The notes beneath the pieces were generated by a model. The model was not told the DNA's origin. It was given only the letters and a program-made list of their open reading frames with translations, and made no database searches. Made by a program: the position numbers and the translations under genes. 64,000 nucleotides of DNA from Psilocybe cubensis (Eukaryota). Below, piece after piece: positions 26,085 through 52,615 of this stretch (its first letter is position 1; each line of letters begins with the position of its first letter). Location: assembly GCA_017499595.2 (NCBI GenBank), contig CM039010.1:372001-436000 (forward strand). The letters are read 5' to 3'.

Positions 26085-26425
26085 TGTAGTCGTAGATTAT
26101 GGGCAGCTTATGGATATTGTAGTCCCTCGTCGTCGGTATTCAAGTTGATAACAGAAAAAAATTGTCAAGCAAGACGTTCGGAGATGGCCGAACAGCGTCC
26201 AGCGCGTGTAAACTCGAACCGTTCTTCCTTCTCAAATCTTACTATATTGATGAATCCAGACCTCTTCCTCCTTGTTACTTGGTCAGGCTAAAGCGATATC
26301 TTAGACGCCAACACCTCATCAACTTGCAATCTACCTCGACAGTATGTATGCCAATCTGTTACTAGGACGTCTATTCAATATCCATTTTCAGAAAATTATA
26401 TGACATTGTGGGGTTAGGCGTGCAT

Positions 26426-27690
26426 CTAATTTGCGGTCAGTCTGCTTCTTTCCAACGCACTATGCACGATGGTGGAAATCAACTGGTCATAATCAATGCC
26501 GATACTTTCGGCAAGCAGAGGAAAGTCAGAGTACCCAGGTCGCAATCCTGCGAGGGGGTTGACCTATTGTCGACAAGTGAGTAATCAAGGATATGAGAAT
26601 GTATGGTGATGCTTACCTCAATGCAGTTGGGAACAGCGTTAGCATCTTTTGAATCATAGCGGATGTCCACCCTCCCTCCGTCTCTGCATCCGAGCACTTT
26701 CCAAGCCTTGACAGCAACTTCAGCCGCCCGTTGAGCTACGGGATTGCTTGAAAGGTCCATGTTAACATGTTGTGGGTTGGCCCCCGCTCCTGCACGCTTC
26801 ACGCTATTGCTGTATACCTCCAATTCAAGTAGTTCTGGGTCTTGGTTGTCGACAATAGTGGCCGGGTCAATGGGGCAATTCGGGTTGTCTTTCAAGAATA
26901 CTATCTCACGTACGCCAATGGCTCGAGCGTTGGAACCTGTCCCAAGGATGCCTACCGTGAACTCACGGCCGCTCAGGAAGCGTTCAATGAGTATAGTCTG
27001 TGTCGGATACCGCAGTGACAGGTCCTCGACTACTTTTGCGAGTTGCTCATAATCAGTGACCTTGTTCGCTTGTTGAATGCCAACCCCGCTGCCCTCTGCA
27101 CTCGGTTTAGCGAATAAAGGAAATGTTTTTAATGCCTGACTGTGCGGCGAGCTTTGGATCACGGATTCAACAGACATCTCGGCGGCTTTGGACCATGCGT
27201 TCCTGGGCGGCACACACGCATATGGTGCGGAAGGTACGCCGTAATGCTCCAAGACCATCTAAACGCCTACAATTCAGTATATGCTCGCCATGTCAAGTAC
27301 GAATGTCAGCCGTACCTTTGTTTTTGCCTTGTCAAGACACAACCCAAGCGTCGCCGAATCCGAGAATGTGAATGGAATACCCCAGGCCTCCAGCAATGCT
27401 GGCACCTGAGCCTCTCGTCCTACGCCCCCGAATCCTTCACAGATGTTGAATACGATGTCCCAGTCTGGCTTCGATTTAACAAGCACTTTTGTCAGGGCTT
27501 TCAGACCACCAATCATTTCAACTGTCCCAAGTTTTCGCAAGGACGCTGCGATTCGCTGAATCGTTTCGTCGAAATCGAACTCCGCACATTGTTCAGCAGA
27601 ATATCCTAGCGCTAGCCATTCCTCTCGAGAGTCATATGTGAACGCAATTTTAAGGACAGGGGTAGGCATTTTGGCTCCTTGTGCAAGCAT
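26426..27690 (-). CDS. D-alanine-D-alanine ligase-like ATP-grasp enzyme (3 exons)
   Basis: IAFTYDSREEWLALGYSAEQCAEFD, FNICEGFGGVGREAQVPALLE, LDKAKTK, FPLFAKPSAEGSGVGI, LIERFLSGREFTVGIL, GCRDGGRVDIR and IEVNPLAGL. Two ~50-nt introns. A TATAAA close upstream suggests the true start may be the ATG at 27669. Confidence 0.88.
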
Positions 27691-28568
27691 AAATTTTGCG
27701 GCCGTTTATAACGAGAGTTGCTGGGGCTCAAAGGTCCAACGCCGCATGTTGGGTGTCAACAAAGTAATTTATCCTACTTAAATTGTCGTGATAAACGTAA
27801 CTTCTTACACTTACTGGTAAACAGTTACCCTCGAATCGATCCTAGGACTTGTTTAAAATGAATATGTATGGCTTCGCATTGACTGTGCGGACCAATTCCC
27901 GGCCCGCCTTATCGGAACAACGCCGCGTCAGTATCGTGTTTTTCCTTCGATCAGATCCTCAATCCAAGATGTCCACAAAGCTCGCCATATCATGCACTCG
28001 AAGTGGCTCCAAAGCACACGTTGCTCGAATACTGAAGGTCCCACGCGCCATGAAATCTTTTACGGCGGCCTATGACGCGCATACGTCGACTTAGGTGGGG
28101 TAAATTCCTCGGGATATTGGTGAACTATGGCATTCTAACACCATGAGTTAATACTGATCACTTTTCAATAACCTCAATGTTCCTTACAGCATGCAACAAC
28201 TGTTCCTTAATTTCCAGGACTTCGAGAATAAGATGGGGAACACTTCAGCAATCTCGGCACACATGCATACATCCGTTAGACAAAGTTAAGACGGCAGAGA
28301 GCTCAATCCAATGCACTAATTAGCCTAACGATGTAGCATACGTTGCTAGAACACTCTTCTCTGAATTTCCGCATCTGCCAATTTGTGGCAAGTGGAACAA
28401 AACCCGGTCAGAAAGCAATTCAACAAATTGAATTATTTTGCTCAAAAATCTATTTAGCCGGGCCTTTTGAATCATTAGCGTTTCAATCAATTACTCCCCA
28501 AGATTTTGTCCAGTTCAACAACTCCCATTTTTTTCACTGCACGCTTGGACCTTATCCAGCCTTTGAAT

Positions 28569-30251
28569 ATGTTCGGGTCAATGCTACCCAGATATGGATT
28601 AAGAAGCATATTTACTTCTTCAACACGGAGCTTTCGTGCTGTAGAAGGGGAGGCGATAAAACCCATTCATCGCGCCACTTACCTCCCTGACCTTGCTCCA
28701 GGAGATTATACTGTCACCAACCCTCATCCCAGCATATTTGACCTCCAACAGGCCAATAATGTTTCCAACTCCCCATCACATATAACTGGAGTGACTGGAG
28801 TAAATCTTGATATACCCTACTGGAAGGCGCTCCGACCTTGGAAAGATGTAGAGGAGGACAAGTTTCTCAGTTACCAATGGCAGGTATGCGATAGAATGTG
28901 ACATCATTTTTTCCCTAACGTTTTCTGTAGGTTTCAAACAGCGTACAAGGGGAGAAGAAACTTCGAGAATTTCTTGCTGACGTGCTTCCCAACAATATCC
29001 CTTCATCCAGAACTAGAGTTGGAAACCCGAATGTCGCGCCAATTACCACAGCGTATGCATTCATAGAAAGCGTCTCTGATGCGATATCCAAAGCTCCCAT
29101 GGCTATTCGATTGACACCGCATATATTGAGCGTCATTGACTGGTCGGATCCTGTGAACGATCCTATTCGGCGCCAGTTTATCCCGTTAGGAAGCGAACTA
29201 TTACTCGATCATCACAGGCTAAAGCTTGATTCTCTCAACGAGGAGCACGATTCACCGGTTAAAGGCTTAGTCCATAGGTATCCCACCAAAGCCCTGTTTT
29301 TAGGTACGTTTATTGGTGTTGTAGAAAAATGGGTGCTAATATGTAAGTACAGCAACTTCTGTATGCAACGTATACTGCCGGTTTTGCACTCGTTCCTATG
29401 CAGTTGGAGCCAATACTGACACTGTGACCAAAAACTCTCTCAAACCCACAAAGCGACGCTGGGACGAAGTTTTTAACTACATAGAAAATACTCCCCAACT
29501 CAACGATATAGTGGTGTCAGGAGGCGACTCCTTCTATCTTTCGCCTGAGCAACTCTACGACATCGGAAAGCGTTTGCTTGAAATCCCACACATCAGACGA
29601 TTTCGGTTTGCGACAAAGGGCCTGGCAGTTGTCCCATGCCGCATTTTGGACCCTCAGGATACCTGGAGCGCTGCTTTAATCGCAATATCTGACATGGGAA
29701 AGAAGATGGGCAAGGCGGTTGCTGTCCACACCCATTTCAACCATCCAAATGAAATTACTTGGATTACCAGGCTGGCTGCTCAAAAGCTTTTCGAGAATGG
29801 GGTCACTGTGCGCAACCAGACAGTTCTTCTACGCGGAGTCAACGATAATGTGGCGGTAATGAAGAGGCTCATACAAAATTTGGCGGATATCAACATTCTG
29901 CCCGTAAGTTTCCTGACTCTGCTCTTGTACCCGCGATGTCTCCGACCTGTTCGTTTTTCTGTATAGTACTACGTTTATCAAGGAGATATGGTGCGAGGTG
30001 TAGAGGACCTTCGGACGCCGCTGTCAACAATACTTGATCTTGAAGCACAGATTCGTGGAAGCATCAGTGGCTTCATGACCCCACAGTTTATTGTAGACCT
30101 TCCGGGAGGGGGTGGCAAGCGTCTGGCTTCATCTTACAAAGATTACAACAGAATCACCGGGGTGTCCACGTTTGTGGCTCCAGCTGTTACGGGGGATCCC
30201 AACACCGTCTTCAAATACCATGACCCAGTATGGAGTATTCCAAGTCATTAG
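28569..30251 (+). CDS. KamA-family (lysine 2,3-aminomutase-like) radical SAM/PLP enzyme, full-length copy, 4 exons
   Basis: FLSYQWQ, DPIRRQFIP, SPVKGLVHRYP, CNVYCRFC (CxxxCxxC, 29364-29387), SGGD, HTHFNHPNE, NQTVLLRGVND and DLPGGGGK (PLP lysine). The Arg/Ser-rich N-terminus lacks acidic residues and resembles a mitochondrial presequence. Confidence 0.92.
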
Positions 30252-30396
30252 GCTCACGGGGTATTCAATACTTTGATATTGAACTGAATGTAGAAAAAGA
30301 AAATATGAATTATATTACAAGTTGCTACAAGTTAAGACTTCATTACAACATTAAGACCGGGTATTAATGAGAGTGGATATAATGGGTGAATGCCAA

Positions 30397-30968
30397 TTAG
30401 GCAATGGTGATTTTCTTTGGTGCAAGCTCCGGTGTGGATTTCGGGAATGTCACGGTGAGAATACCGTTCTCCATGTTGGCTTTAATCTCCTCACTCTGTA
30501 CAAATTCAGATAAGTTATAAATTCTAAGATTCATGCCAATATTCTACCAACCTTGACACCAGCGGGGAGCTGGAGAGTACGAGAGAACTTGCCAAACTGT
30601 CTCTCGCGCACGGCATATCCGTTCTCCTGGAACTCCTTGTCTTGCTTAGATTCAGCAGAGACAGTCAGGCGATTGTTGTGAACATCAATGTTCACATTGT
30701 CCTTGACAAGTCCAGGAAGTTCAAATGTGGCCGTGACAAGGTTCTTCTCAGAGTCTTCGTGGAGGTCCATCCTGTTTGACATTTGTTAGATTCATCCAGA
30801 TATTGTGAAAGTGGGTGATGCTTACCTTGGTCTGAAAGACCTCACTGCGCCATCGCCAGCTCCGTTTCGTTGCTGGACTTGATTTTTGGGCACGCCTTGA
30901 CGAGCGAAAGCCTCGTCAAAGAGGCGGTCGAAGTCGTAGAATGGTTCGTAAAAGAAGACGCTAGACAT
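30397..30968 (-). CDS. Small heat-shock protein HSP20, copy 1 (3 exons)
   Basis: MSSVFFYEPFYDFDRLFDEAF; PRMDLHED..VTATFELPGL; ERQFGKFSRTLQLP; KANMENGILTVTFPK (alpha-crystallin domain). Confidence 0.93.
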
Positions 30969-31131
30969 TTTGTGTTGTGTGTTGTGTTCAGAGAGATGCT
31001 TGTTACTGCTGGTTGAGCCTTCAATTCTCCTCTTTATATACCTCATTGAAAATGCTCTAGACAATACTAGAAATATATTATTGGTGAACTGCAGACCTTT
31101 CACGGCCTTCCAGTAATTGGCGCTCGTCATG

Positions 31132-31144
31132 GAAGGTTCCAGAA
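31132..31144. promoter_or_regulatory. Heat-shock element, HSP20 copy 1
   Basis: GAAggTTCcaGAA: three alternating nGAAn units upstream of the TATATAAA box. Confidence 0.8.
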
Positions 31145-31669
31145 CATTGAATGGCAAGAAGCCTAAAGCCGTTCTGCCGCCTTTGCAATCTCGCAGCCAG
31201 CCTTGATAAGGCCAAACTTGGTTTCCAAACGCCCCACCCTCTAAGCTACGCCAAACCAATGCTGGTTTAGGATACACTACGCACAGCATCTCTCCAATTC
31301 AGCTCACCCCCATTTTCCATTTTTCCGAGAAAACCATCGGCTCTTCTACTCTTGTCTCACTCTTCCCTCACTCATGTCTGCCTCCATCACCTCTCACCTC
31401 TCTCCCACCAACGAGGCGCATTCCACGCCTATCCCTGCTATCGCCCAGCGGTTTTGAGACCGTGATGACGCAAAACCGCTCTCATCTGGACGCCATACTA
31501 GGTCAGCCATTTGAACAGAAAGCATTTTACACGCCAATACTCACTGTTATAAATGCCTATCCTACTAGACCCGCCATTTCCCTCGTAGTTTGCTGTCAAG
31601 AGTGGCTTTGAGACCAAAATGACAAGAAATGCGCCCTCGCCTGCGAATCTGGCCAAACAGCAGGGATGG

Positions 31670-38838: not shown

Positions 38839-40039
38839 ATGTCGCGCCGTATAGAAAGCGTCTCTGATGCGATATCCAAAGCTCCCATGGCTATTCGATT
38901 GACACCGCATATATTGAGCGTCATTGACTGGTCGGATCCTGTGAACGATCCTATTCGGCGCCAGTTTATCCCGTTAGGAAGCGAACTATTACTCGATCAT
39001 CACGGGCTAAAGCTTGATTCTCTCAACGAGGAGCACAATTCACCGGTTAAAGGCTTAGTCCATAGGTATCCCACCAAAGCCCTGTTTTTAGGTACGTTTA
39101 TTGGTGTTGTAGAAAAATGGGTGCTAATATGTAAGTACAGCAACTTCTGTATGCAATGTATACTGCCGGTTTTGCACTCGTTCCTATGCAGTTGGAGCCA
39201 ATACCGACACTGTGACCAAAAACTCTCTCAAACCCACAAAGCGACGCTGGGACGAAGTTTTTAACTACATAGAAAATACTCCCCAACTCAACGATATAGT
39301 GGTGTCAGGAGGCGACTCCTTCTATCTTTCGCCTGAGCAACTCTACGACATCGGAAAGCGTTTGCTTGAAATCCCACACATCAGACGATTTCGGTTTGCG
39401 ACAAAGGGCCTGGCAGTTGTCCCATGTCGCATTTTGGACCCTCAGGATACCTGGAGCGCTGCTTTAATCGCAATATCTGACATGGGAAAGAAGATGGGCA
39501 AGGCGGTTGCTGTCCACACCCATTTCAACCATCCAAATGAAATTACTTGGATTACCAGGCTGGCTGCTCAAAAGCTTTTCGAGAATGGGGTCACTGTGCG
39601 CAACCAGACAGTTCTTCTACGCGGAGTCAACGATAATGTGGCGGTAATGAAGAGGCTCATACAAAATTTGGCGGATATCAACATTCTGCCCGTAAGTTTC
39701 CTGACTCTGCTCTTGTACCCGCGATGTCTCCGACCTGTTCGTTTTTCTGTATAGTACTACGTTTATCAAGGAGATATGGTGCGAGGTGTAGAGGACCTTC
39801 GGACGCCGCTGTCAACAATACTTGATCTTGAAGCACAGATTCGTGGAAGCATCAGTGGCTTCATGACCCCACAGTTTATTGTAGACCTTCCGGGAGGCGG
39901 TGGCAAGCGTCTGGCTTCATCTTACAAAGATTACAACAGAATCACCGGGGTGTCCACGTTTGTGGCTCCAGCTGTTACGGGGGATCCCAACACCGTCTTC
40001 AAATACCATGACCCAGTATGGAGTATTACAAGTCATTAG
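38839..40039 (+). pseudogene. 5'-truncated duplicate of the KamA-family gene; reading frame intact from a new ATG
   Basis: Lacks exon 1 and the start of exon 2. Keeps CNVYCRFC, HTHFNHPNE, DLPGGGGK and both downstream introns. ATG 38839 (MSRRIESV...) is in frame. Confidence 0.75.
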
Positions 40040-40184
40040 GCTCACGGGGTATTCAATACTTTGATATTGAACTGAATGTAGAAAAAGAAAATATGAATTA
40101 TATTACAAGTTGCTACAAGTTAAGACTTCATTACAACATTAAGACCGGGTATTAATGAGAGTGGATATAATGGGTGAATGCCAA

Positions 40185-40756
40185 TTAGGCAATGGTGATT
40201 TTCTTTGGTGCAAGCTCCGGTGTGGATTTCGGGAATGTCACGGTGAGAATACCGTTCTCCATGTTGGCTTTAATCTCCTCGCTCTGCACAAATTCAGATA
40301 AGTTATAAATTCTAAGATTCATGCCAATATTCTACCAACCTTGACACCAGCGGGGAGCTGGAGAGTACGAGAGAACTTGCCAAACTGTCTCTCGCGCACG
40401 GCATATCCGTTCTCCTGGAACTCCTTGTCTTGCTTCGATTCAGCAGAGACAGTCAGGCGATTGTTGTGAACATCAATGTTCACATTGTCCTTGACAAGTC
40501 CAGGAAGTTCAAATGTGGCCGTGACAAGGTTCTTCTCAGAGTCTTCGTGGAGGTCCATTCTGTTTGACATTTGTTAGATTCGTCCAAATAATGTGAAAGT
40601 GGGTGATGCTTACCTTGGTCTGAAAGACCTCACTGCGCCATCGCCAGCTCCGTTTCGTTGCTGGACTTGATTTTTAGGCACGCCTTGACGAGCGAAAGCC
40701 TCGTCAAAGAGGCGGTCGAAGTCGTAGAATGGTTCGTAAAAGAAGACGCTAGACAT
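40185..40756 (-). CDS. Small heat-shock protein HSP20, copy 2
   Basis: Same 572-nt, 3-exon structure and motifs as copy 1. Confidence 0.93.
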
Positions 40757-40920
40757 TTTGTGTTGTGTGTTGTGTTCAGAGAGATGCTTGTTACTGCTGG
40801 TTGAGCCTTCAATTCTCCTCTTTATATACCTCATTGAAAATGCTCTAGACAATACTAGAAATATATTATTGGTGAACTGCAGACCTTTCACGGCCCTTCC
40901 AGAAATTGGCGCTCGTCATG

Positions 40921-40933
40921 GAAGGTTCCAGAA
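40921..40933. promoter_or_regulatory. Heat-shock element in the divergent HSP20/aquaporin intergenic region
   Basis: GAAggTTCcaGAA. Confidence 0.8.
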
Positions 40934-41354
40934 CATTGAATGGCAATTGCCGAGGTTTTGGTCTGAGAATGAAAATTGAAATGGAAGGCACTGCCGAAGC
41001 CGTTCTGCTCGTCTCGCCGACGGTAGAATTCTTGACATTTTTTTGGCTAGGTATTCGGATGCGACATGCACATACTATTGATATGTGTATTCCACTCAAC
41101 TAAACTGGAGGTTAGTCAACTGCTCTGCCGACCCAAAAGCGAATAATTGACTCATAAGCGGGGCTGGAAGCATGCTAAGGCAATACCACAATCTGTCTGG
41201 TTGAAGAAAATCGTGACAGCCGAGCGGGCAAGAGGAGGTTCTAAATTCCGTTCAAATTCTGGCTGACGATACGCCTCCTTTATGAGCAACACACCAAGAC
41301 ACACAACTTCACTTAAGGTATATACTTTACACACATCATCGTTCAAGCTTTACA

Positions 41355-42547
41355 ATGCGGGAAAACTTTCGGTGGTCCTCCATTTCTGCAAACTTGGGCG
41401 AAGATATAGCAGCAGCAGCGTTCGAATTCATCGGGACCGTATTTTTTTTGCTTTTTGGTCTCGGTGGGATTCAAGCAGCAGCAGCAGCGGAAAGCACTAT
41501 CGATAACGCTCCGTCAACGGGGATGATCAGCCACATCATGTACATCGCAACGTGCATGGGTCTGAGCTTGCTCGTATCTGCATGGTTGTTCTTCAGAGTG
41601 ACTGGCGGTCTGTTTAACCCCAACGTATCTCTTGCGTTGTTTCTAATTGGAGTACTTGGTCCGGTGCGATTTGTGCTTTACTGTATCGCACAATTGGTTG
41701 GAGGAATTGCCGCGGCTGCGATTGTCAGGTCGTTGACCTCTGCACCTTTGGGCGTCAAGTGAGTGCCCGTCTTATACCAAATGAAGCGTAATGGTCTGAG
41801 TCACACTGACTTATTCTCTCCAGTACATCTCTGACTCCCCAAATCAACAGTGCACAAGGCGTTTTTATAGAAATGTTCATTACAGCCGCACTCGTCATAG
41901 CTGTGTTGATGTTAGCAGCTGAAAAGCACGAAGCTACCCCCTTTGCTCCAGTGCGTTCTACTCCAAAAGTAACGCCGGGAATCTGAATTTCTTATACGCA
42001 AATTACATCGACTCAGGTTGGTATTGGCCTAACATTGTTCGCGTGCCATCTGTACGTTAATGCACTAATGTAATCTTGGCGGATTCATTCACCTTACCTA
42101 GCTTTGCCGTTTATTATACGGGTGCTTCCATGAATACAGCAAGATCATTTGGACCCGCCGTCGTATCCGGTTTTCCGGTCCCAAATCATTGGATAGTAAG
42201 GGGTTTCATTTTATTTATCACTAGAATCCTAGTGCCGATCTTTTCTTTGTTTTAGTATTGGCTGGGGCCTTTTCTAGGATCGATTCTTGGGACAGGCATT
42301 TACGCATTACTGAAGCAGTAAGCAGTTTTACATGGTTCCTGTAATAAGTATAGATATTGAAAAATGTACTAGCTACCATTATTGGGACCTTACTCCCCAT
42401 CAAGCTACAGGAGACTTTGAGAAATCCCCAGATGATCCTGTCGAAGGGGCTAAGCGAGCGCTGACGGGTAAGGAAAACAGGGATGATGTTCAACGAGACG
42501 GAGCAAGTGAGGGTACAAGTGGATTTGGAAATGAGGAAAGGGTGTAA
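41355..42547 (+). CDS. Aquaporin (MIP family) A, multi-exon
   Basis: EFIGTVFFLLFGLGG, TGGLFNPNVSL, YCIAQLVG, EMFITAALV, YTGASMNTARSFGPAV and HWIYWLGPFLG. Confidence 0.92.
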
Positions 42548-42649
42548 TCGCACACTTGTTGCAAGATAATGAACGAAATAGTCTAGCTGATGACAGGGCT
42601 AACAAGAGTCTTTAAACAAGCTAGTAGAATAATATGAGAAAAGTAGTCT

Positions 42650-49383: not shown

Positions 49384-49535
49384 GAACAATCTTAAATCCT
49401 TCACTATTTTTGTTGGAGGGTACCTATAATTGTATTATAAACTTGTATCCAATTGTAATATAACGTCGCATATATATTTTAATCCAATACAAATTTATAA
49501 TCAAAATCGATTATGGTTGAAACTACACAATTTGA

Positions 49536-50720
49536 TTACACCCGTTGCTCACTTCCAAACCCACTAGTGGATTTACTTGCCACGTCTTGTTCAATATCTT
49601 CACTCTTTCTTTTACCTGTCAGCACTCGTTTAACCTCTTTAACGGGATCGCCCGGCGATTTTTCAAAGTCCCGTGTAGCTTGGTGTGGAACAAGATTCCA
49701 ATAGCGGTAGCTATCATAGTCACTTGTCTTTAGAACTGATGCAGAAATCTGACAACATTGCTTACTGCTTCAATATTGCGTAAATGGACGCCCCGAGAAG
49801 TGATCCTAGAAAAGGACCAAGCCAGTACTGAAATAAAGGAATGATTCATGCATGAGATCCTCAATAATAACTGAAATTACTTACAACCCAATGATTTGGG
49901 ACTGGAAAGCCAGACACGACGGCTGGTCCAAACGATCTTGCTGTATTCATGGCAGCACCCGTGTAGTAAACGGCAAATCTGATAGGATGGTAGGGTCGGC
50001 ATGAATCATAGATATCAGGTTCGTAAATAAAGCGCACAGATGGCACGCGAACATCGTTAATCCAATGCCAACCTGTGTAAATATAATCTCAGTGAGAATC
50101 ATTACTCGAGTTCCAGTAGCCGATTTAAGACGTACCGGTGCGAAAGGGGTAGCATGGTGCTTTTCTGCTGCCAGCATCAATACAGCAATGACGAGTGCCG
50201 CTGTGATAAACATCTCTATAAAAACGCCTTGGGCACGATTTATTCCTGGAGCTAGAAATGTACTGTATATAATATCACAGTGTAACCATACCTTCCATAT
50301 AGTAGTAGGAGCATAAACTCACTTTACGCCTAATGGTGCTGCAGTCAATGATCGAACAATGGCCGCCGCCGCGATCCCTCCAACCATTTGTGCAATACAA
50401 TAAAGCACAAATCGTACCGGACCAAGTCCTCCGACTAGGAACAACGCCAGAGATACATTGGGGTTAAACAAACCGCCAGTCACTCTGAAGAACAACCACG
50501 CGGATACAAGCAAACTTAGGCCCATACATGTTGCGACGTACATGACATGGTTAACCCCCGTTGATGGTGTGTTATCTGTGGCGCTTTCTGCTGTTGCTGC
50601 TTGAATGCCCCCCAAGCCAAAAAGTAAAAAGAAGACGGTCCCAACGAATTCAAATGCGGCCGCCTCTGCGTCCTCTCCAAGGTTTTCAAATAATGAGGAC
50701 CGCTGGAAATCCTTCCGCAT
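49536..50720 (-). CDS. Aquaporin (MIP family) B, multi-exon
   Basis: MRKDFQRSSLFENLGED..EFVGTVFFLL, GGLFNPNVSL and YTGAAMNTARSFGPAV. Same exon structure as aquaporin A. Confidence 0.92.
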
Positions 50721-51377
50721 TGTATGTAAAGCAGAGTTTGAATCGTTATGTATGTAAAGTGGATTGTTGGAATGAAGTCGTATCTGAAGTTCAAATATCC
50801 CTTTCACTTCACTAATTTATACTAAAAGGAACCGAATAGCAGAAGCGAGATCTCCACAATAACTCAAAAAATATGGAGCTCTAGCAACACGAGTTTCAAT
50901 GCAGCTCGGATTGTTAATGAAAGTTTCATAACTGTATCACCAACATGGCTTTATATGACGCAAAATATTTCTCCAACCGTTGATAAAGGCGTCATAAGGT
51001 GATGCGGTGCTCCATCAGCGAGGCTGGACGCCAACCTGATTCATGGTCGGCTTCGCTACAGGCGCTTATCAGACTTGATGTTCGCAATAGCACGACTGTC
51101 CACTAACACTTTAGCTCAGAGATTCCACATTTCATGGATAGTGTATCCTCAATACCAGTTAATAACAAACACCATTGGTTTGGCGTATATGTCAACCTTT
51201 ATGAGATATTTTAACAGCTTAGAGGGTGGGGCGTTTGGAGTGTGAAATATAGAAAATATTTCAGACTAAACCAAGTCTGGCCTTTTCAAGGTTGGCCGCA
51301 AGATTTCAAAGGCGGCAGAACGGCTTTAGGCTTCTATTTCACACTCAGACTAAACATTCGGCAATTGCCATTCAATG

Positions 51378-51490
51378 TTCTGGAACCTTCCATGACGAGC
51401 GCCAATTTCTGGAAGGGCCGTGAAAGGTCTGCAGTTCACCAATAATATATTTCTAGTATTGTCTAGAGCATTTTCAATGAGGTATATAAA
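51378..51490 (+). promoter_or_regulatory. HSP20 copy 3 promoter: heat-shock element and TATA box
   Basis: TTCtgGAAccTTC at 51378-51390, a second TTCtgGAA near 51407 and TATATAAA at 51483-51490. Confidence 0.8.
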
Positions 51491-51554
51491 GAGGAGAATG
51501 GAAGGCTCATCCAGCAGTAACAAGCATCTCTCTGAACACAACACACAACACAAA

Positions 51555-52126
51555 ATGTCTAGCGTCTTCTTTTACGAACCATTCTACGACTTCGACCGCC
51601 TCTTTGACGAGGCTTTCGCTCGTCAAGGCGTGCCTAAAAATCAAGTCCAGCAACGAAACGGAGCTGGCGATGGCGCAGTGAGGTCTTTCAGACCAAGGTA
51701 AGCATCACCCACTCTCACATTATCTGGATGACTCTAACAAATGTCAAACAGAATGGACCTCCACGAAGACTCTGAGAAGAACCTTGTAACGGCTACATTT
51801 GAACTTCCTGGACTTGTCAAGGACAATGTGAACATTGATGTTCACAACAATCGCCTGACTGTCTCTGCTGAATCAAAGCAAGACAAGGAATTCCAGGAGA
51901 ATGGATATGCCGTGCGCGAGAGACAGTTTGGCAAGTTCTCTCGTACTCTCCAGCTCCCCGCTGGTGTCAAGGTTGGTAGAATATTTGCATGAATCTTAGG
52001 ATTTATAACTTATCTGAATTTGTACAGAGCGAGGAGATTAAAGCCAACATGGAGAACGGTATTCTCACTGTGACGTTCCCGAAATCCGCACCGGAGCTTG
52101 CACCAAAGAAAATTACCATTGCCTAA
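51555..52126 (+). CDS. Small heat-shock protein HSP20, copy 3
   Basis: Inverted, near-identical copy of copies 1 and 2 (572 nt, 3 exons). Confidence 0.93.
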
Positions 52127-52615
52127 ATGGCGTCCACCAACTGTATCCATTCGAACTCATACCCCGTTTTCATGCTGTGTATTTGTAATGAAGTTGTAAT
52201 TTGTAGTATCTTGTAATATAATTCACATTACACTCGTACTCCGGAATTTGAATACGAAGCAAAACGTTCAATTCGATATAAGCCACGGCAGAGGAAGCCA
52301 ATTTGCTATAATGCAACACCAACGATGGATATGCTTCTTGTGTCTTAGAAAAACCTTCTGCGATGCTCACTTTAAAGGCCCCAGTCTCAGCATAGTGCGG
52401 ATAATTGTGATTCTCTTAATCTTTGCCTGTATTGGTGTACTTGACAACGGAATTAGATTTGCACGGACTGATTCCGCGGTAGTCAATGAGGGTATTGAGG
52501 TGATTTTCGAACCTCGATGACTTGCTATTCGCATGTCTTCAGAGCTGTCGTTCATACTCAGAAAAAATATATTAGCACGAATATATTCAAAATCTAGGGA
52601 AATACAAAAATGTGA

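Follow-up and report, generated by a model that had tools for sequence, protein, structure and literature searches.

The 64,000-nt stretch of the Psilocybe cubensis genome analysed here (GCA_017499595.2, contig CM039010.1, positions 372,001 to 436,000 of the forward strand; hereafter the window, to whose first letter all coordinates refer) carries two divergent genes. One encodes an ATP-grasp ligase related to D-alanine–D-alanine ligases (Ddl) and the other a radical S-adenosylmethionine (SAM) aminomutase of the KamA family. The two genes stand head to head with their start codons 899 bp apart, and the locus extends from 26426 to 30251, the positions at which the stop codons of the ligase and KamA genes, respectively, end. 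The spacer (27670-28568) is taken as a shared divergent promoter region; the original prediction had already described such a common spacer, although its size was put at about 880 bp instead of the 899 bp measured from ATG to ATG.

The ligase gene, on the minus strand, encodes 377 amino acids (aa) in three exons separated by two introns of 57 and 53 nt, both with GT..AG borders. Exon 1 (27669-27316, aa 1-118) holds the N-terminal motif KIAFTYDSREEWLALGYSAEQCAEFD, which is common to bacterial kamA-linked ligases. After intron 1 (27259-27315), exon 2 (27258-26617, aa 119-332) encodes the ATP-grasp core, which is recognized by the Pfam family Dala_Dala_lig_C (PF07478, 1.5e-20). Intron 2 (26564-26616) is followed by exon 3 (26563-26426, aa 333-377 and the stop codon), which starts with VNPLAGL right after the NCIE that ends exon 2. 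This model is letter-identical to a database protein (P0273) that NCBI names 'D-alanine--D-alanine ligase [Psilocybe cubensis]'. The KamA gene, on the plus strand, encodes 507 aa in four exons, and its three introns of 47, 49 and 63 nt all have GT..AG borders. Exon 1 (28569-28883) encodes aa 1-105 and is separated by intron 1 (28884-28930) from exon 2, which the gene model places at 28931-29303. Beyond intron 2 (29304-29352), exon 3 (29353-29903) encodes the radical SAM core with the CxxxCxxC motif (CNVYCRFC, 29364-29387) and matches NCBIfam TIGR00238 (1.9e-38) and Pfam Radical_SAM (3.9e-07). Exon 4 (29967-30251), which follows intron 3 (29904-29966), contains YQGD and VD, equivalents of Asp293 and Asp330 of lysine 2,3-aminomutase (LAM), then the pyridoxal phosphate (PLP) lysine in PGGGGK (30102-30119), and the stop codon. 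Both motifs of the aminomutase are thus found as originally predicted.

Contigs of two public runs of one study (X1 and X2) are spliced at exactly the predicted borders of all five introns. Both ligase introns are removed in X1 contig 1, and the three KamA joints are seen in X1 as well as in X2. The kind of these runs was guessed as RNA and the argument rests only on their contigs being spliced; contig depths are unfit for ranking the expression of the two genes. Contigs from X3 cross the region unspliced. As X1 and X2 join across all five introns, both genes are transcribed and spliced, and the prediction of two intact, divergent, intron-containing genes is borne out. The public KamA model P0001 (490 aa) corresponds to the same gene without 17 residues (ATSVCNVYCRFCTRSYA; window 29304-29420) that include the whole CxxxCxxC. 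The joint across the 49-nt intron 29304-29352 in X1 and X2 indicates that the Cys motif is retained in the mRNA. P0001 therefore skips the iron-sulfur motif, and automatic annotation hides the nature of KamA.

Further spliced contigs map to the same region. In the spacer, 61 nt (27764-27824) with GT..AG borders on the plus strand are skipped in X1 and X2 contigs, and in X1 this skip shares a contig with the ligase mRNA of the minus strand. Either a separate plus-strand transcript or an upstream leader of KamA may account for it. A single locus tag (CVT25_008064) separates those of the ligase and KamA in Psilocybe cyanescens. One X2 contig, with seven base differences, shows plus-strand GT..AG joints at 26341-26392, 26434-26518 and 26576-26627, overlapping the 3' end of the ligase gene; it may represent an antisense transcript, another allele or a paralogue.

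Family scores of full-length KamAs were taken on four eukaryotic members, P. cubensis being represented by P0001 and hence by a protein 17 residues short. All four exceed the cut-off of TIGR00238 (199.2 bits), with 205.3 bits for P0001, 220.4 for Neurospora, 228.6 for Orbilia and 232.4 for Physarum. Among the NCBIfam models, AblA gives fungal KamAs their highest score, and EpmB is the lowest of the six KamA models. When the paralogue P0002 is aligned to the LAM structure PDB 2A5H, Cys125/129/132, Arg134, SGGD, Asp293, Asp330 and the PLP Lys337 are all conserved. The same elements (CxxxCxxC, SGGD, the PLP lysine and the equivalents of LAM Arg134, Asp293 and Asp330) occur in the window KamA and across 18 eukaryotic and 24 ligase-linked bacterial KamAs, one fungal row being gapped at the PLP lysine. 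Both Asp columns hold Asp in 18/18 eukaryotic and 24/24 bacterial proteins of the 59-row alignment. The alignment of P0002 with 2A5H stops at residue 338 of 416, indicating that the C-terminal domain of LAM is missing from the fungal KamA; the Pfam model LAM_C (127 positions) is matched only over positions 3-26, with 23.7 bits, below its cut-off of 26.7. At the other end, the first 25 positions of KamA include four Arg and many Ser/Thr, and no acidic residue occurs before position 26, a composition that resembles a mitochondrial presequence. The ligase has no presequence and starts directly at its first strand.

The ligase retains the motifs of the ATP-grasp/Ddl group, as predicted, but departs from genuine Ddl enzymes. 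On two Ddl subfamily models, full-length P0273 obtains 122.4 bits (cut-off 243) and 109.2 bits (cut-off 245.65). Its best sequence match among solved structures is a Ddl (72 bits), and residues 1-65 and the loop 226-290 cannot be aligned with any Ddl of solved structure. A structure modelled with AlphaFold on a 32-sequence alignment (A3) reaches a predicted local distance difference test (pLDDT) of 89.1 and a predicted TM-score (pTM) of 0.90. The top structures retrieved for it by Foldseek are exclusively Ddl or Van-type ligases (TM-score 0.6-0.8, identity 17-25%), so that the predicted fold has the same three domains. The residues K97, K144, E180, R255, D257, E270, N272, G276 and S281 of Ddl correspond to K114, K169, E210, R314, D316, E332, N334, G338 and S344 of the ligase. 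These positions, which serve ATP binding, Mg binding and phosphoryl transfer in Ddl, are invariant across A3. In contrast, of the Escherichia coli DdlB residues His63, Tyr216 and Leu282, which we take to form the D-Ala pocket, His63 is replaced by Glu78 and Leu282 by Asp345 in the alignment. In the loop, which cannot be aligned to Ddl, the conserved lysine is followed in the family alignment by Arg, Ala, Lys or Glu, not by Tyr. A true Ddl function, already held implausible in the original prediction, is ruled out by the scores below cut-off, by the altered pocket residues and by the absence of peptidoglycan from fungi. Since the catalytic residues are invariant while the presumed D-Ala pocket positions differ, the ligase looks catalytically competent but built for substrates other than those of Ddl, and the two extra acidic residues near its pockets would suit a cationic substrate. 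The PylC model (TIGR03909) gives only 19.2 bits on exon 2 (cut-off 248.3).

A bacterial Ddl-like subfamily encoded beside kamA, which had been put forward together with its N-terminal motif in the original prediction, does exist, and the motif is common to the bacterial homologues of an alignment (A1). Metagenome contigs were scanned with an alignment of ligase homologues; 591 of the 601 pattern stretches encode a relative and the best 80 loci were analysed. A gene encoding a KamA homologue lies on the same strand and ends just upstream of the ligase gene in 53 of the 57 loci that have at least 1300 nt upstream. Among the other four, one has KamA further upstream, behind a GNAT-deacetylase gene, and three have no KamA. 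Where less than 1300 nt are available upstream, the end of a KamA gene is found at the contig edge in 13 of 23 loci. Downstream of this first ligase (ligase 1), the cassette usually encodes a second, distinct Ddl-like ligase (ligase 2) and a GNAT acetyltransferase (about 160 aa), sometimes along with a protein of 584-766 aa that carries GNAT and histone-deacetylase-type domains. The KamAs of these cassettes score best on the AblA model (406-491 bits), under its cut-off of 525.4. At one metagenome locus (L016, 5684-8041), Radical_SAM, LAM_C and Dala_Dala_lig_C occur in one open frame of 786 aa, which could reflect a genuine fusion or an error of sequencing. Among database proteins, several of 655-708 aa seem to unite two ATP-grasp ligases, and one of them (P0428) has two Dala_Dala_lig_C stretches.

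Searches started from single fungal proteins give a similar association on the KamA side. A single fungal ligase used as a query against prokaryote genomes retrieves one relative only (L001, 28%). The fungal KamA P0002 finds a match in 149 of 301 Pseudomonadota genomes. In the best 30 of these loci, a Ddl-like ligase adjoins KamA in 11, including seven of the eight top ones, and 12 of the remaining 19 are of the TIGR03822 type when scanned. Fungal KamAs are about 33-40% identical to those of the bacterial cassettes, and the fungal ligase is 43-49% identical to ligase 1.

Phylogenies place both fungal proteins with those of the cassette. The ligase tree (63 rows: 28 fungal ligases, 29 bacterial kamA-linked ligases 1 and six ligases 2, on which it is rooted) groups all 28 fungal ligases in one clade, with a Shimodaira–Hasegawa-like approximate likelihood-ratio test (SH-aLRT) support of 100. 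This clade is placed beside or inside the bacterial kamA-linked ligases, 27 of these 29 adjoining it and two branching below the join, where the order is partly unresolved (support 88). The ligases 2 are distant from the fungal ligases, which fall with ligase 1. In an earlier tree of narrower scope, the fungal sequences had formed a grade below a tight sample of bacteria, an arrangement that wider sampling resolved. In the KamA tree (59 rows), 18 eukaryotic KamAs (17 fungal and one from Physarum) unite in a single clade (100). Its sister group (98) is a clade (97) comprising 24 ligase-linked bacterial KamAs and two others. The TIGR03822 proteins and the single EpmB (L082), at which the root was set, remain outside. 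KamA itself, like the ligase, therefore looks derived from the same bacterial cassette. The trees fit a bacterial origin of both genes, as had been proposed for the ligase, and are compatible with a joint transfer; they prove neither its direction nor a single event. Within the fungi, the ligases of Amanita and Mycena group with those of ascomycetes, away from other Agaricales. In the KamA tree, the Psilocybe/Galerina clade is next to Pseudogymnoascus, and Physarum is next to Orbiliales. These odd placements may reflect fungus-to-fungus transfers or old paralogues.

Linkage in other fungi was read from database locus tags or contig sizes, which suggest that the pair is linked in six more cases belonging to Agaricales and Orbiliales. 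In P. cyanescens, the ligase (CVT25_008063) and KamA (CVT25_008065) are both encoded on a contig of 8589 nt. The tags are TWF694_002675 and TWF694_002676 in Orbilia ellipsospora, H072_4 and H072_5 in Dactylellina haptotyla, and TWF481_000211 and TWF481_000209 in Arthrobotrys musiformis. Galerina marginata has two pairs, the partners of each being on contigs of equal size. The protein searches gave the best 120 matches for each enzyme, and a species absent from a list may still carry the gene. Among these matches, the KamAs that bear an organism name are all fungal, apart from one record labelled Quercus suber and a transcript of Physarum, and they include many Sordariomycetes, Leotiomycetes and Dothideomycetes. 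The ligases listed come from many Aspergillus and Penicillium, lichens, Metarhizium, Chaetomium, Amanita, Mycena and Calcarisporiella.

The fungal locus thus resembles the bacterial cassette by its two proteins, including the N-terminal motif of the ligase, and by the direct proximity of KamA and ligase 1 in both kinds of organisms. It differs in that the fungal genes contain introns and are divergent rather than operonic, and in that the fungal KamA is about 145 residues longer at its N-terminus. The other partners of the cassette are absent: tblastn searches of the whole 64-kb window with two proteins each for ligase 2, GNAT and GNAT-deacetylase found nothing save a weak ligase-2 match on the ligase itself. 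Likewise, no nonribosomal peptide synthetase (NRPS), polyketide synthase, cytochrome P450, transporter or regulator was seen in the 30 long open frames between 14 and 48 kb, although short exons may escape such a survey. This argues against a natural-product cluster of that type and agrees with the predicted two-enzyme cluster lacking an NRPS. As neither cassette partners nor cluster-type genes were seen around the pair, the module would consist of just these two genes.

Taken as a whole, these data make it fairly probable that the pair is a working two-enzyme module, built from the first two genes of a bacterial operon, that converts lysine into beta-lysine and then incorporates it into an amide in an ATP-dependent manner. 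The chemistry is proposed from that of the families and from gene linkage, and the following model can be drawn. KamA, equipped with a [4Fe-4S] cluster, SAM and PLP, would move the alpha-amino group of L-lysine to C3, yielding beta-lysine. The ATP-grasp ligase would then phosphorylate a carboxylate to an acyl phosphate that would be attacked by an amine, as in Ddl, giving a beta-lysine amide. A beta-amino acid would thus be made and then ligated, as first suggested from the sequence. That ligase 1 acts directly on the KamA product is suggested by its constant position next to KamA in bacteria and by its being the sole ligase that fungi retained. The product might be a beta-lysyl dipeptide or an isopeptide with a second basic amino acid. 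Because Ddl joins two like amino acids and PylC joins a rearranged lysine to lysine, our initial guess is a product of the beta-lysyl-(beta-)lysine type. In the bacterial cassettes, extension and capping of the product of KamA and ligase 1 would fall to ligase 2 and the GNAT. Of the four or five genes of the cassette, fungi would have kept only KamA and ligase 1, added introns and set the two genes head to head on one promoter region. A more tentative extension, which we regard as possible but somewhat doubtful, is that a fungal ancestor took kamA and ligase 1 together and that mushrooms and many ascomycetes make a beta-lysine metabolite (a dipeptide, an isopeptide or a polyamine-like amide).

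The proposed sequence of reactions has several known parallels. In the AblA/AblB pathway of methanogens, which makes N-epsilon-acetyl-beta-lysine, and in that encoded by kamA-yodP in Bacillus, the product of a gene neighbouring that of a KamA-family enzyme also puts beta-lysine into an amide. However, the second enzyme is there an acetyl-CoA-dependent GNAT, whereas it is an ATP-grasp ligase in fungi. The PylB/PylC system follows the same logic, with lysine being rearranged by a radical SAM enzyme before a Ddl-like ATP-grasp ligase couples the rearranged product to another lysine, but PylB neither belongs to the KamA family nor depends on PLP, so that the analogy is only functional. EpmB, a KamA paralogue, makes beta-lysine for ATP-dependent amide ligation by EpmA, which is a paralogue of lysyl-tRNA synthetase and not an ATP-grasp enzyme.

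Several observations weigh against the proposed lysine-to-beta-lysine-amide module. The eukaryotic KamAs remain far below the cut-offs of all equivalog models: 220-247 bits versus 525.4 for AblA/KamA (TIGR03820), 185-217 versus 396 for TIGR03822, 146-166 versus 369.3 for EpmB, 164-195 versus 650 for glutamate 2,3-aminomutase and 156-198 versus 600 for arginine 2,3-aminomutase. The assignment of lysine as substrate also leans on Asp293 and Asp330 of 2A5H, which presumably bind its epsilon-ammonium group. Both trees were computed by a 'quick' method with SH-aLRT as sole support. In addition, the stem of the eukaryotic KamAs is very long (3.85 changes per column), and the tree contains no canonical LAM/AblA, glutamate 2,3-aminomutase or arginine 2,3-aminomutase, so that the sister relation of the eukaryotic and cassette KamAs is weaker than its support value implies. 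If KamA were mitochondrial, the two steps would fall in different compartments, the ligase having no presequence. Finally, the two genes do not always go together. In Xylariales sp. AK1849, they are on contigs of different size and hence do not seem to be neighbours, so that the linkage suggested in Agaricales and Orbiliales does not seem to extend to this species; moreover, many ascomycetes appear in just one of the two lists of matches.

This scattered distribution is what could be expected if the two genes were unrelated neighbours. KamA would then have its own conserved role in fungi (e.g., in the metabolism of lysine or stress, perhaps within mitochondria), the ligase would use other substrates and their adjacency would be a leftover of joint transfer or due to chance. 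KamA occurs in many Pezizomycotina (Neurospora, Podospora, Colletotrichum, Pseudogymnoascus) that are not among the best 120 ligase matches, and the ligase in numerous lichens and species of Aspergillus and Penicillium not listed among the best 120 KamA matches. Furthermore, the pair is flanked in the window by genes of housekeeping types (Atg1-like kinase, SFM1-like methyltransferase, HSP20). However, not being listed among the best 120 proteins differs from genomic absence, and chance neighbours would hardly account for an adjacency found repeatedly, in two fungal phyla as well as at 53 of 57 bacterial loci, for the joining of the two enzymes in one frame at a bacterial locus, or for the fact that the nearest bacterial relatives of both fungal genes are cassette genes. 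We therefore regard two unrelated neighbours as unlikely.

It appears still less probable that the pair modifies proteins, with KamA supplying beta-lysine and the ATP-grasp enzyme attaching it to a protein or a small carrier peptide. Such ATP-dependent modifications do exist: EpmB, a paralogue of KamA, serves with EpmA in that of elongation factor P (EF-P), and ATP-grasp enzymes of other families modify proteins, such as RimK acting on ribosomal protein S6 and LysX on LysW. Nevertheless, the ligase has a predicted Ddl fold, the solved structures closest to it all belong to Ddl enzymes acting on small molecules and it does not score as RimK, LysX or EpmA, while EpmB is the model on which fungal KamAs score lowest. 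No carrier open reading frame is evident in the window, though no search aimed at one was made. Equally little credence can be given to an aminomutase acting on another amino acid (arginine, ornithine, glutamate or another) to feed a different beta-amino acid amide: the equivalog scores and the modest identity to cassette KamAs would allow it, but the two Asp kept in all eukaryotic and cassette KamAs argue against glutamate, the glutamate 2,3-aminomutase presumably having non-acidic residues at these positions, though not against arginine or ornithine.

The surroundings of the pair bear traces of duplication. Besides the kinase and the methyltransferase mentioned above, the 30 long open frames include a multicopper oxidase, a MIP channel, an amidase and, immediately behind KamA, an HSP20. 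A direct duplication of 2096 bp, 99.2% identical (17 differences), relates 29063-31157 to 38851-40946 and comprises the HSP20 gene together with the 3' part of KamA (358 codons). It creates a second, 5'-truncated copy of KamA on the plus strand (38851-40039). This copy is an open frame equivalent to aa 150-507, lacks the first 149 codons and differs at three of 359 residues; an in-frame ATG is located 12 nt upstream of the duplication border. The HSP20-bearing segment (30302-31157 and 40090-40974) has a third, inverted copy at 51337-52229 that is about 94% identical, which implies at least two copying events for the HSP20 region over 22 kb. The window also contains an inverted repeat (41351-42549 and 49534-50724; about 1.2 kb, 75% identity), one arm of which overlaps the frame of the aquaporin-like MIP (41286-41759).

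KamA-type aminomutases have been described in bacteria and archaea, where they feed the synthesis of osmolytes and antibiotics, lysine fermentation and the modification of EF-P. The enzyme families involved here and the principle of making a beta-amino acid and then an amide, as in AblA/AblB, EpmB/EpmA and PylB/PylC, are already known. The novelty lies in a eukaryotic KamA module, in its match to an uncharacterised bacterial cassette and in the persistence of the pair across two fungal phyla. A literature search, with most subscription journals outside its coverage, found no paper on a fungal or eukaryotic KamA or on a pair of KamA and ATP-grasp enzymes, and no description of the kamA/ligase 1/ligase 2/GNAT cassette. 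The Pfam Dala_Dala_lig families are among the profiles used in one study (PMC5169069), whose passages on these profiles are silent on such a pair. If the more tentative reading of a joint uptake and a beta-lysine metabolite is true, no eukaryotic pathway based on a radical SAM aminomutase of the KamA type would precede this one, and the metabolite would be new to eukaryotes. It would also give a tractable entry to the chemistry of a cassette spread over many bacterial phyla. Two small soluble enzymes make it testable what the cassette produces and whether fungi contain beta-lysine compounds. More generally, the pair is a candidate case of operon neighbours that entered eukaryotes together and stayed adjacent.

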